From Gemmatimonadales bacterium (GTDB taxonomy: Bacteria > Gemmatimonadota > Gemmatimonadetes > Gemmatimonadales > GWC2-71-9), in NCBI GenBank assembly GCA_037189525.1, contig JBBCJC010000002.1, forward strand, positions 768,001-832,000: 64,000 bases of DNA, written 5' to 3'. How positions within the stretch are numbered: position 1 is the stretch's first letter; each line of letters begins with the position of its first letter. Of the stretch, positions 13,197 through 46,600 are shown piece by piece. The notes under the pieces are model-generated. The model was not told the origin of the DNA, ran no database searches, and was given only the letters and a program-made list of their open reading frames with translations. The translations under genes and the position numbers were made by a program.

Positions 13197-13712
13197 GTGG
13201 CAACCGAACTTGGCGGGATGCAGGTCACATCGCTGATGGAGGCGTTGCCGGGAATCGCATCGGTACTGCGGAATCCCGTCGCGGATGCGTTCGTCGGTTT
13301 GATCCGGGCGGGTGCCCGTCTGGGCGATTTCAAGGTCGCCGACGCGGAAGAGATCCTTCGGTACGCGGTTCGGCGCACCCTGATGACCCAGGACGAAACG
13401 GAACGGGTCCTCGCGGAAGTGCGTGAGGCAACGGAAAAGCGGGCCGAGAAGGCTGCCGAGCGGGAGCGGGGTAAGGCTGCCAAAAAGGCCGCCGCCCCGG
13501 TGGCTGAACCGAAGCGGGCCGAGCCCGTCGAGGCGCGTCGTCCGGAGCCGGCCGAGCCGAAGCGGGTCGAGAAGAAGAAGGCGGCACCCGCGCCGGCCCC
13601 CGCAGCGAAGAAAGCTGCCCCGAAAAAGGCGGCTCCTAAGCCCGCGGCAAAGAGTGCAGCCAAGGCGCCCGCCAAAGCAGCAGCCAAGCCGGCGGCAAAA
13701 AAGCGCAAGTAA
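13197..13712 (+). CDS. Histone H1-like Lys/Ala/Pro-rich protein
   Basis: C-terminal AAKK/PAKK/APKK repeats; RBS GAGGGA before the GTG start. Confidence 0.75.
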   Translation: MATELGGMQVTSLMEALPGIASVLRNPVADAFVGLIRAGARLGDFKVADAEEILRYAVRRTLMTQDETERVLAEVREATEKRAEKAAERERGKAAKKAAAPVAEPKRAEPVEARRPEPAEPKRVEKKKAAPAPAPAAKKAAPKKAAPKPAAKSAAKAPAKAAAKPAAKKRK

Positions 13713-16821: not shown

Positions 16822-16917
16822 TTATCCCCATTCTTTCCATCCACATTTTCCACACGGGACGAGCAGCGCCTTAAGCGCATGTCCTATCGCGTCATCAGAC
16901 CCACATCCCGATCCACA
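16822..16917 (+). promoter_or_regulatory. Cluster of co-oriented DnaA-box-like 9-mers
   Basis: TTATCCCCA 16822, CCATCCACA 16837, TTTTCCACA 16846, AGACCCACA 16897, CGATCCACA 16909, compared with consensus TTWTNCACA. Confidence 0.5.
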
Positions 16918-17026
16918 CCGATCGCGTAACCCGAAGAAATAAAGGCACTTGCGAGTTTTTGGGGCGTTTGCAACCTTGCAGATGTCTCCGATAGGGTCAT
17001 TTCTGATGGCTTTATTGTGAGCGACT

Positions 17027-17400
17027 TTCGTCGAACGTCGGGGGAGTGCTGGCGGGGTTCTGCTGAATCCGCAGTCACGTTGAGTCCGGTGATCACGTCG
17101 GCGAAAGCGGTGGAGCCAGTCGCGTGCTCCACCCACTCCGATCTGGCGCCTCGGGGTGCAGTGCGAAGGGTCGGTCCGCGACCCGATCCGACTCGCAGCG
17201 CCTGGATGAGTGAACCGGCGAAGATGGCCATCTGCGTCGGGAATCGTCCCACCGGGCCCTGGCATGCCCTACCGAAGGCGGATCAGCCTTCCGGCGGCAT
17301 CTGGGAGAAGAACGAGGCGCCTGGCGCTTCGACCGGGTGGGAGCTCGTCTGACGAACGGCCGCGACAGGTCTCCGGACTTGTGCGGCCGTTCGGCTTTTT
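17027..17400 (+). ncRNA. Candidate large structured RNA of unrecognised class
   Basis: End-closing helix 17027-17037/17346-17356, at least six nested internal helices, an upstream promoter-like TTGCAA-N18-TAGGGT and a downstream terminator. Confidence 0.55.
17353..17400 (+). terminator. Intrinsic terminator
   Basis: CGAACGGCCGC-g-ACAGGTC-tccg-GACTTGT-GCGGCCGTTCG, an 18-bp stem with a c(UCCG)g loop, followed by gcTTTTT. Confidence 0.75.
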
Positions 17401-17538
17401 CAGGAGGTAGGCGTACAAGATCGCTTCGGTCGGACGTCCCCTTCCCGGAGTGGGCGAAATGCCGCCCGCGGGGGTGGCCATGCGGGCCCGGTGTCGATCC
17501 CCGTGCAAGTAAGTTCCGCTTATTGTCGAGGTGATGAC

Positions 17539-17937
17539 ATGACGACCTCCGTATTCACGACCGGCCGTACCCTGAACGTTGTAATTGCGAGTGACCGAGA
17601 AGCCTTCACCCGCGACCTGGCGGAATCACTGCGAGCCCACGGTCACAACCCGATCGTCCAGGATTCCGGCGGTTCGGCGCTGGACGCGCTGAGCTCCGGG
17701 GCCGATGCGATTCTGGTCGACACCAACCTTCCCGGCGTCGACTGGGAGCAGGTTCGGAGCGCACTCGGCGCCAGCCGCACCAGCGTTCCGGAACCGATCG
17801 ATGCGATCGAGCGTCGCCACATTGCCGCGACGCTCCGGTTCACCGGCGGGAATCGCCGTAACGCCGCGCAGCTCCTGGGGATTGCCCGTTCGACCCTGCT
17901 GGCCAAGATCCGTAAGTACGGTCTCGACCGCGAATAA
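17539..17937 (+). CDS. Fis-family HTH protein with a degenerate, truncated receiver-like N-terminus
   Basis: Start at ATG 17539 after RBS GAGGTG; IERRHIAATLRFTGGNRRNAAQLLGIARSTLLAKIRKYGL; AILVDTNLPG. Confidence 0.85.
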   Translation: MTTSVFTTGRTLNVVIASDREAFTRDLAESLRAHGHNPIVQDSGGSALDALSSGADAILVDTNLPGVDWEQVRSALGASRTSVPEPIDAIERRHIAATLRFTGGNRRNAAQLLGIARSTLLAKIRKYGLDRE

Positions 17938-27421: not shown

Positions 27422-27492
<71 letters not shown>

Positions 27493-27517
27493 CTCACCCC
27501 CAATTCGCGGGGGAATC

Positions 27518-43600: not shown

Positions 43601-46600
43601 GCAATGTCCGGCTCCATGAGGCGCTGCCGGTCGAGCCGGCGCGGCCGGTCCGCCTGCAGTGGTCCGAACGGGGCGATGCCAAGGGGCGGCATGTCTCATT
43701 GCACGCGCGTGAAGGTGGTGACGAGTCCGGGTGGCGCCTGATTGCGGATGCGACAGCCATTCCGCGTGTATCGGACCGGCAGGCCGTAGCGATCGATGCG
43801 CCACACGCTGCTGATTTGGTCGAGTCCGGCGAGGATTTCTACCGCCGGTTGCGACTGCGCGGGTTGGAGTATGGGCCGGCTTTTCAGACGATTACGGAAG
43901 TCCGATCGGGTAAGGACAACGCGGAAAGTCGGTTGGCGTTGCCGCAGCCGGTCCTTACCGATCCGGGTCTCGAGCGCTATCGGGTGCATCCGGTCCTCAT
44001 CGATGCTGCGCTGCAGACGATCATCGCGGCTGCGGTTGGTCCGGATAACTCGAGGGTGACTACGCCGTTGCCGGTCCGCATCGGAACCTTCGAGGTCGGC
44101 TCGGCCTCGTGGCAGAGTGGGCCGCTCGCTGTGCGGGCGAGCGTTACCGATCGGTCGCCGGGCGGATTTACGGGCAATGCCGTTGTTTCGGATTCCGAGG
44201 GTCGGCTGATCGCGACCCTCGAATCGGCCGGGTTTGCCTGGACCGGAGTCGAGACAGGGACGATCGACGAGACGTTCTTCTCGCTCGATTGGGAGCCGGT
44301 GGAGTTGGTCAATGCCGAGGTGGAAGGGCGCCGGTTCGTCGTGATTGGCGATCGGGAAGCGAGCCTGGCCGGATCACTCCGGGCTCGGGGCGGCCAGGTC
44401 GACGCGGTGTCCTCGTTGGATGCGTTGACGGCCTTGGGGGACCTGCCCGGAGCGTGCGATGTCATCTGGTGCGTCGATGGCGAAGGATCGAGCCAGGATC
44501 AGGTAATGCGCGGCGAGCAGCTCGTCACGCAGGCGGTTCGCCTGGGGCAGTGGTGTACGGAACGAGACAGCCAGGTCGCGCGGGTTGTCGTGGTGACACG
44601 TGGCGCGGTTGGGTTTGGGGGTGACGGGGCCTGCGACGTCGCGGTTGCGGCCACACGCGCCGTCGGCCGGGTGCTCGGTCATGAGGTGCCGGGGCTGCTG
44701 GTTCAGGCGGTCGACTTGCCGGTCGATGGAAGCTGGGGAGAGGCGCTTCCGGCCTCGATCGCCGCGTCGGCCGATGCGGAGCTGGCGTATCGTGACGGCC
44801 GATGGTACGCCGCACGTTTGGGTTCGTTTGCGGTACCTGAGGCGCGAGTTGGCGTAGATGAGTCGTATCAGTTGACGCTCTTGTCTCCCGGATCGCCCGA
44901 TCAGCTCGAGTGGGTTGCTCGCGGGCGGCGCGCCCCGGGGGCTGGGATGGTCGAAGTCGAGGTCGAGGCGGTCGGCCTCAACTTCATGAATGCCCTGAGC
45001 GTGCTCGGCGCTTATCCCGGCGCGCCGAACGGGGTTGGTTCACTCGGCCTCGAAGGCGCCGGCCGAGTCTCTCGGGTTGGCGAAGGTATTAGCCATGTGG
45101 CCCCTGGCGATCGGGTGCTCTTCGTGGCGCCGGACGCCATGGCCCGCCATGTCGTGACCTCGGGTGAGTTGGTCGTACCGGCGCCGACCACCGATCCCGC
45201 CGAGGTTCTCGCGGCGCTGCCGATTGCGTACCTGACGGTCCACTACGGTTTGGGTGTTCTGGCGCGGCTCTGCCGGGGCGACCGCGTCCTGATTCACAGT
45301 GCCGCGGGCGGTGTCGGGCTCGCGGCCATTGCCTATGCCCGGATGTGCGGTGCAGAGGTCTATGCGACGGCGGGCACGGCCGAGAAGCGGGAATGGCTCA
45401 AGTCGCTCGGTGTGCATCATGTATTCGACTCGCGCTCGCTGGCCTGGGCCGATGCCGTGCTCGAGGCGACGGGTGGCGAGGGCGTCGATGTCGTGCTCAA
45501 CTCCCTGGCGGGTCAGGCGCAGGAGCGTGGCCTCGACGTGCTGCGGACGGATGGCCGTTTCGTCGAGATCGGCAAGCGTGACATCTATGATGATCGCGCG
45601 CTTTCGCTGGGGGCATTTCGGAACGGTCTTGCCTTCTTTGCCGTCGACCTGGACCGAATGATTCGGGAGCGTCCCGATCGGGTCGGAGCGATGCTGCGGG
45701 ACGTCAGCGTGATGATCGGGGCGGGGCAGCTCGAGCTTCTGCCGGTCGAAACGTTCCCGGCGGATCAGGTCGGCGATGCTTTCCGGCGGATGTTGCCAGG
45801 TACGCATCGCGGGAAGCTCGTGGTCTCGCTCGCGGTGGCGCCGTCGCGACTCGCGCTCGGCCCGGCCGTTGCGCCCATTCGGGATCATGGCACGTATCTC
45901 GTCACCGGCGGACTGGGCGCTTTGGGTCTGGTCGTGGCGTCGTGGCTGGTCGAGCGCGGTGCGGGCGCGATCGTCCTGGTCGGGCGTCGAGCGCCGGATC
46001 AGGCGACGAAAGCCAAACTCGACGAACTGGCCCGGCGGGGTACCAGGATCGAAACACGTGCATTCGATATCGGCGATCGCGATGCCGTGACGAGCCTGTT
46101 CGCTTCCCTGAGCGGGCTTCCGGCGCTTCGTGGCGTCTTCCACCTTGCCGGTACGCTCGACGATGCGCCGATCTCGGCGCTCACGCCCGAGCGGATTGCG
46201 GTGCCGTATCGGCCCAAGGCGGCGGGCGGGCTACATGTTCTCGATGCGGCGCGGGCGCATCCGCTCGATTTTGCGGTCGCGTTCTCGTCGGTGGCGTCGC
46301 GGTTCGGGACACCCGGGCAGGCCAATTACGCGGCGGCCAACGCCGTACTGGATGCGCGCGCGGCTAATACAGAAGCACGGTTGCTCAGCATCAACTTCGG
46401 GCCGTTCGCATCGATCGGTCTAGCCGCGGCAGACCCTGCGCGTTTGAGTGCGCTGGCGCGGCAGGGGTTCGGCGCGCTCGACGGCGAAGAGGCTCTGCTC
46501 GCGCTCGATCGGTTGCTCGGCGCGGGTGTTCGCGGGGCGGTGACGGTTGCGCGGTTCGATGCTGAGCGCTGGGTGTCGGGTAAGGACGACGCGGATCGGC

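Follow-up and report, generated by a model that had tools for sequence, protein, structure and literature searches.

A new family of folded non-coding RNA in Gemmatimonadales with a predicted double-pseudoknot core

A 64,000-nt stretch of a Gemmatimonadales genome (the window; G000:C2:768001-832000) holds what is almost certainly an independent, stand-alone gene for a non-protein-coding, heavily folded RNA of about 415 bases. The RNA represents a genuine new family of non-coding RNA and is a member of no Rfam family. Its fold is shown by covariation among homologues and is predicted to comprise three domains with a double pseudoknot at the centre. An earlier note on this DNA had described an unrecognised, large, multi-branched structured RNA with its own promoter and terminator, a description that covariation, a conserved promoter region and the lack of an Rfam match bear out.

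The RNA gene (16984..17400, + strand, from the deduced start to the U-tract) sits between the gene for P204, an orphan protein, and a Fis-type HTH gene, both on the + strand. Its sigma-70-type promoter (16949..16976, +) consists of a -35 element at 16949-54, a 16-nt spacer and a -10 element at 16971-76 that is degenerate in this genome; a strict promoter and terminator scan called neither signal at the locus, and the promoter is placed here by its homologues. Upstream of 76 homologous loci (counted after removal of 21 loci in which the motif is missing, of three duplicates and of L064), TAnnnT lies 16-18 nt from the -35 in 64, and the first paired base falls 5-9 nt past the -10 in 72, the lower bound being fixed by the point at which folding was started. 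This spacing puts the start of the RNA here near 16984, about 20 nt upstream of the 5' boundary proposed earlier (17005), which falls in the loop of the 5' hairpin. That hairpin, P0 (16984..17024, +; z = -2.9), is variable in sequence, and long 5' hairpins are also present in homologues. At the other end, the intrinsic terminator (17353..17400, +) is an 18-bp stem followed, after a 2-nt gap, by five U; described earlier as UNCG-capped, it has a UCCG cap and folds with z = -7.3. Homologues carry a hairpin and a U-rich tail at the same position with unrelated loops. The loops of helix P15 are GNRA or UNCG in 28 of 51 rows when read on the + strand and in 0 of 51 on the - strand, which assigns the RNA to the + strand. 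The whole stretch folds better than its shuffles, a comparison proposed in the earlier note (z = -3.3; none of 100 shuffles as good).

The structure was derived from a MAFFT alignment, not fitted to any structure, of 51 copies below 88% identity. A revised 106-pair model is 92.7% paired in these homologues, and 76 of its pairs show two-sided change, whereas shuffles give 50 and sliding the model along the alignment gives at most 50; because the model was chosen from the same alignment these figures lean in its favour, and the pair counts are inflated by related sequences. An unsupervised covariation scan of 66 copies also ranked Watson-Crick pairs at the top. Domain I (17025..17107, +) contains P1 (17025-32/17100-07), P2 (17038-42/17085-89), the P3 hairpin (17046-78) and the P5 palindrome (17089-96); its helices are 83-96% paired, and most pairs show two-sided change. 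The core (17109..17202, +), whose helices are 96-99.5% paired, is made of P6 (17109-16/17126-33), P7 (17134-41/17151-58), P8/P9 (17162-97), a kissing loop (17119-24/17177-82) and a second pseudoknot, PK2 (17145-49/17198-202). The kissing loop and PK2 each have one compensated pair, in 7 and 8 of 51 rows, respectively; across the set of 124 copies, 12 of 116 readable kissing loops have the A-U form, and by eye the extra copies L078 and L087 add further compensated kisses. Domain III (17203..17351, +), with which the single-sequence fold agrees (z = -3.2), starts immediately after PK2 with its closing helix P10 (17203-11/17343-51), in which all nine pairs show two-sided change, and continues with P11 and its GGCC loop (17226-29), P12 (17247-55/17333-42) and P13-P15.

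All the helices listed in the earlier note can be drawn on this sequence, including 10 of 11 pairs of a helix, 17027-37/17346-56, that it took to close the whole RNA. Homologues keep those at 17046-17078, 17109-16/17126-33, 17162-97, 17264-17300 and 17314-30, together with the inner part of 17247-55/17333-42. The global topology drawn from them found no such support, as the three long-range helices (17027-37/17346-56, 17086-96/17210-18 and 17097-101/17138-42) stay at the level of shuffles, with 60.3% pairing compared with 58.6% and two-sided change in 11 pairs compared with 10.1; in the first of these helices, two pairs lie outside the alignment and three more have letters in only 3-5 rows. 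A stem at 17146-59 could formally pair in 99% of rows, but it never covaries and conflicts with the covarying P7 and PK2. A GC-GAAA-GC element, previously set down as a feature of its own, is now assigned to the 3' strand of P1.

A 111-aa open reading frame within the RNA, which the earlier note allowed might encode a conserved protein, is not conserved: it has no Pfam match, a + frame is open across the span in only 20 of 51 homologues, and none is open in an 87%-identical relative. Searching the window against Rfam 15 (all 4227 families), a check that the earlier note had proposed, returned only a tRNA at gathering thresholds; at E<=10 the RNA region gave five matches, all far below cut-off, and eight matches to 16 homologous loci were likewise far below it. 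The window carries tRNA-Cys at 27422-27493 and tRNA-Ala at 44313-44391. Exclusion of RNase P, tmRNA and SRP RNA, claimed earlier, agrees with the location of these genes elsewhere in the genome. The RNase P RNA gene is at G000:C2:386805-387190, about 3.3 kb from dnaA, with no RF00010 match at the RNA locus; ARAGORN found no tmRNA in the window, and the true gene is on C3; and the model for large SRP RNA with an Alu domain (RF01854) found nothing at the locus, with an S-domain match on C3. A likeness by eye between the domain III consensus and the RNase P 5' motif had no support from the models. Models of OLE, raiA, ROOL and GOLLD matched neither the window, the RNA region nor the 16 homologous loci. 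Among article titles and the openings of abstracts we found no description of this RNA, which motif tables in supplements (for example, of PMC11109978) could hold, and the main text of the Minerva preprint does not contain the string 'Gemmatimonad'.

Searches with a covariance model built from the RNA core delimit the family sharply. The RNA is present in 67 of 68 genomes of the window's own family and 13 of 14 of a second Gemmatimonadales family, and was found in 0 of 68 of a third (a sample that includes G111, flagged unpublished) and 0 of 45 genomes from nine other families of the phylum. With BLAST, the stretch was detected in 38 of the 61 related genomes searched. The usual copy number is one per genome, with two or three in some. 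A scan for the core motif gave at least 119 matches; among the 80 named relatives listed, 79 are Gemmatimonadota, and the lone exception, L191, looks like coding DNA and is not matched by the profile. Carriers are mostly uncultured Gemmatimonadales, four of their records being labelled Gemmatimonadaceae by the depositors. Collections of phages, plasmids and viral contigs contained no match, so that a mobile origin was rejected, and no remnants of the RNA were seen beside the YhaM-like gene at 14 loci of the non-carrier family.

Metatranscriptomes weakly support the presence of a discrete RNA. In four runs from four studies, the RNA was the sole piece of the stretch found at >=99% identity, on contigs covering 17013-17361, 17024-17361, 17085-17347 and 17059-17357. 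Two of these contigs end at 17361, and the first bears 21 extra 5' letters, 18 of which match 16994-17014 by our own reading. The runs were chosen for holding the stretch and the contigs show neither strand, ends nor level; they therefore hint at a discrete, abundant RNA without measuring it, and uncovered flanks in these runs do not mean that the flanking genes are silent.

Natural deletion variants reduce the RNA to a small part of its core. By eye, several genera are without domain I, domain III or both, and at nine loci (L021, L027, L076, L077, L079-L082 and L096) the promoter stands almost directly before the core, which the terminator then follows. At L109 and L110, from the same genus as this genome, the kissing loop and P9 are deleted and, by eye, only P7/PK2 and short flanking stems are left, whereas L108 (G022:C667) keeps the outer domains, with PK2 rewritten yet pairable and the kissing loop apparently lost. 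The minimal variants are about 100-150 nt long, and the predicted P7/PK2 pseudoknot is the common remainder of the deletion series. Extra copies of the RNA retain the fold under different upstream sequence. Several of the copies L078, L087-L090, L095, L098 and L099 are without the 26-bp site found upstream of the main copy and show by eye TTCAY direct repeats about 11 nt apart followed by a different -10-like hexamer, which suggests that another regulator may act on them. Others (L091-L094 and L097) appear to have a -35 and -10 like the main copy and to be without domain I. L090 lies beside RtcB and L095 beside a beta-CASP metallo-hydrolase; the neighbours of the other extra copies are unrelated.

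The outer domains carry two self-complementary loop tetranucleotides, at 17091-94 (P5) and 17226-29 (P11). The P5 8-mer (17089-96) leaves no room for a loop when fully paired. Its two adjacent middle bases form a Watson-Crick combination in 63 of 80 rows and G-U in 8, making 71 pairable and 9 unable to pair, in a count that leaves out the 44 of 124 rows with longer loops; parsimony reconstructs 16 changes, of which 11 lead to a pairable combination and none to A-C. Of 124 rows, 105 have GGCC as the P11 loop, two have GATC and one has GCGC (three palindromic switches). A clade of eight rows has a non-palindromic loop, most extra copies break the pattern, and the minimal variants are without both palindromic loops. 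Kretsch et al. 2025 take covariation of adjacent loop bases as a palindrome to support intermolecular bridges in OLE and GOLLD (PMC12286853). For the present RNA, the palindromic loops are suggestive only, and we give the full-length form an even chance of being a homodimer.

The gene for P204 (16206..16820, +), a 204-aa orphan, is the constant neighbour of the RNA, and its product is the candidate partner. P204 has the same distribution as the RNA (67/68, 13/14 and 0/68 genomes of the three families; 156/165, 5/5 and 0/230 by profile search) and adjoins it in 80 of 82 primary loci, the other two being cut by contig ends. Across 98 distinct loci, P204 is upstream on the same strand in 66 and downstream and convergent in 14, and 16 are extra RNA copies without an adjacent P204; in G022 it is on a separate contig (L114, G022:C686) and does not adjoin the RNA. 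The protein is acidic (pI about 5.6), shows a weak internal duplication and forms a narrow family of 123 matches with no Pfam family above cut-off and no NCBIfam or PADLOC match. A confident predicted model (pLDDT 85) retrieved nothing with Foldseek at E<=0.001 and no usable match in an Atlas search, and its best structural likeness (Z 5.3 over 67 residues, rmsd 3.0, with WGR, BMC and AP2 rows tied) is too weak to name a fold.

Adjacency must be read against the surrounding synteny. A control gene 3 kb upstream (13197-13712; unannotated, with an Ala/Lys-rich tail) is found in 67/68 and 12/14 genomes of the carrier families, stays near the RNA and is missing from the same two genomes, G120 and G058; unlike P204 and the RNA, it has weak relatives in 32/68 genomes of the third family. 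Because the control gene shares their pattern and gaps, the joint absences of RNA and P204 are probably assembly gaps and their adjacency may be plain synteny. Co-loss of the two was accordingly rejected, as G120 and G058 are also without the control gene and the gap in G019 is at a contig end. The wider neighbourhood is also syntenic, local inversions would leave RNA and P204 adjacent without selection, and the two-family carrier pattern amounts to one phylogenetic event, which argues against over-reading the link. The acidity of P204 and the 16 extra RNA copies that have no P204 beside them also count against a partnership. Binding of the RNA by P204 is a tentative proposal that we think more probably wrong than right.

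The reading we prefer, with a probability that we place a little short of even, is that of an abundant, pseudoknot-centred scaffold RNA that acts in trans and is probably dimeric and protein-bound. P7/PK2 would be its working part, as no natural deletion variant examined has lost this element. The outer domains would act as an accessory scaffold in which two molecules pair through the self-complementary loops 17091-94 and 17226-29, as in OLE and GOLLD, and the core would offer a docking site for protein, with P204 the leading candidate, yielding a lineage-specific ribonucleoprotein.

An unlikely alternative is that the RNA regulates globally by binding RNA polymerase or the ribosome, in place of 6S or Ms1 and with an unrelated fold. 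In 61 genomes of the order RF00013 had no match, which means that any 6S RNA there escapes this model. The present RNA is usually single-copy and shows signs of abundance, and in six of six related genomes its gene is located 41-395 kb from dnaA and directed away from it. However, the third family has neither a recognised 6S nor this RNA, so that the two are not complementary, and the retained core is a compact pseudoknot and not a rod with a bubble, in keeping with the earlier view that this is no 6S-like rod.

The DNA upstream of the RNA is itself conserved, raising the possibility, which we consider improbable, that selection acts most strongly on the DNA, as a regulatory or chromosome-cycle site at which firing of the promoter is required, and that the RNA is largely dispensable. 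This site would combine a DnaA-box-like array with CCACA cores (16837..16917, +; boxes 16837-45, 16846-54, 16897-905 and 16909-17) and a 26-bp conserved site (16927..16952, +) that abuts and overlaps the -35 and usually occurs once per genome. Across 76 upstream regions, CCACA-core boxes number 239 compared with 26.7 expected, and their offsets recur near -116, -105, -93, -53 and -42 from the -35; by comparison with the consensus they are putative DnaA boxes. Besides G000, the 26-bp site is found at <=2 mismatches in 70/72 and 2/2 genomes of the carrier families and 0/76 others, and even beside RNAs reduced to about 100-150 nt it is kept at 0-1 mismatch, which favours this reading. Further support comes from similar CCACA clusters in this genome, one in the dnaA-dnaN gap and others preceding a recA-like and a sigma-70-like gene. 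Against this reading stand the extensive covariation in full-length copies, the extra copies that keep the fold under other upstream sequence and the distance of the site, 395 kb here, from dnaA. An origin of replication at the RNA locus was rejected, the GC-skew minimum and dnaA being about 400 kb away. This genome has seven 200-bp windows with three or more CCACA boxes, the RNA promoter among them. The densest CCACA/TGTGG clusters (G000:C3:463438, C1:346817, C2:390445 and C3:73010) are situated before the recA-like gene, before the sigma-70-like gene, in the dnaA-dnaN gap and in one further intergenic region, with genes named by eye from translations; one global regulator possibly serves all such clusters. 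A second DnaA C-terminal domain is encoded at G000:C14:18586-18774, on a 43-kb contig with phage-like reading frames.

Catalysis, with the double-pseudoknot core as active site, seems distinctly improbable. Compact nested pseudoknots with many invariant nucleotides would suit a ribozyme, and the raiA paper makes the case that catalysis is common among large conserved bacterial RNAs (PMC10861870); yet no Rfam ribozyme matches, and an active site would have to survive deletion of the kissing loop and P9 at L109 and L110 and rewriting of the core at L108.

It is very unlikely that the RNA is a pseudoknot antidote that sequesters P204 in the manner of a type III toxin-antitoxin system. The last element to be retained is an H-type-like pseudoknot beside the gene for a 204-aa orphan, and neither RNA nor P204 was seen alone in a well-assembled region. 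However, in type III toxin-antitoxin systems pseudoknots are repeated in tandem ahead of a toxin gene with which they are co-transcribed, whereas this RNA is a single unit without tandem repeats and has P204 either upstream or convergent, the two being separately oriented in 14 loci. Inheritance is also vertical and single-copy, with no match to phages, plasmids or viral contigs, and P204 belongs to no Pfam or PADLOC family.

A cis-acting riboswitch or attenuator of the Fis-like gene, as the earlier note had suggested from an overlap between its closing helix and the terminator, is largely refuted and has next to no probability: the gene is downstream on the same strand here and the U-tract is short, but the overlapping helix is not conserved, the conserved P10 ends before the terminator without touching it, metatranscriptome contigs end at or before 17361, only 21 of 98 loci have the Fis-like gene no more than 350 nt downstream, and what follows the RNA is often a gene in convergent orientation (YhaM-like at 33 of 34 matched loci, P204 at 14). 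The Fis-type HTH gene itself (17491..17937, +; Pfam HTH_8) is not part of the element and is present in 26/68, 0/14 and 0/68 genomes of the three families; because the YhaM-like and Fis-like neighbours are both patchy, switching of the Fis-like gene in cis is ruled out as the role of the family. At 17410-17440, after the terminator, lies a short motif pair that by eye is also seen ahead of the Fis-like gene in relatives of the same genus; it may be a promoter belonging to the Fis-like gene itself. A YhaM-like OB/HD nuclease, although a frequent neighbour, was rejected as a third partner: in the carrier families it occurs in only 37/68 and 9/14 genomes, the non-carrier family has it just as often (37/68), and it was not found in the present genome. 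At L079 (G065:C3), the YhaM-like gene is followed by the RNA on the same strand and then by a convergent P204.

Large conserved bacterial RNAs of unclassified type are rare, and the source group is widespread and barely cultured. Three features make the RNA amenable to testing: its two-pseudoknot fold has covariation behind it, its deletion variants narrow attention to a small core, and there is a candidate for a protein partner. We think it rather unlikely that the whole would amount to a new class of ribonucleoprotein, in which a self-dimerising double-pseudoknot RNA would be bound by a protein without a clear fold match and expressed from its own single-copy operator, itself linked to the DnaA-box-like array, and in which the deletion series would map function to one small pseudoknot.

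The RNA resembles RNase P, tmRNA, SRP and 6S RNA in size range, single copy and possession of its own promoter and terminator, and differs in that none of their models matches it or the 16 homologous loci. Like OLE, as described in a recent structural study (PMC12286853), it is a large chromosomal orphan RNA with self-complementary loop tetranucleotides that switch among GGCC, GAUC and AGCU in OLE; protein partners are established there (Oap) and a candidate only here, and dimer and protein binding are in our case predictions from sequence alone. Unlike OLE, it is about 415 nt long, has natural variants of about 100-150 nt, occurs in another phylum without an Rfam match and neighbours P204, a protein of no known family. 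raiA motif RNA (PMC10861870) is likewise highly structured and encoded at a fixed locus, and it is abundant and acts in trans, as is probable here. PMC12286853 describes raiA RNA as monomeric, whereas this RNA has candidate dimer loops; this RNA also has no Rfam match and is limited to two Gemmatimonadales families. ROOL is phage- or prophage-borne and often near tRNA islands, according to PMC12286853, in contrast to an RNA that is unmatched in phage, plasmid and viral collections. With ROOL and GOLLD as presented there, our RNA has in common an ornate fold, kissing loops and palindromic loops, differing in that it has only two candidate bridges.
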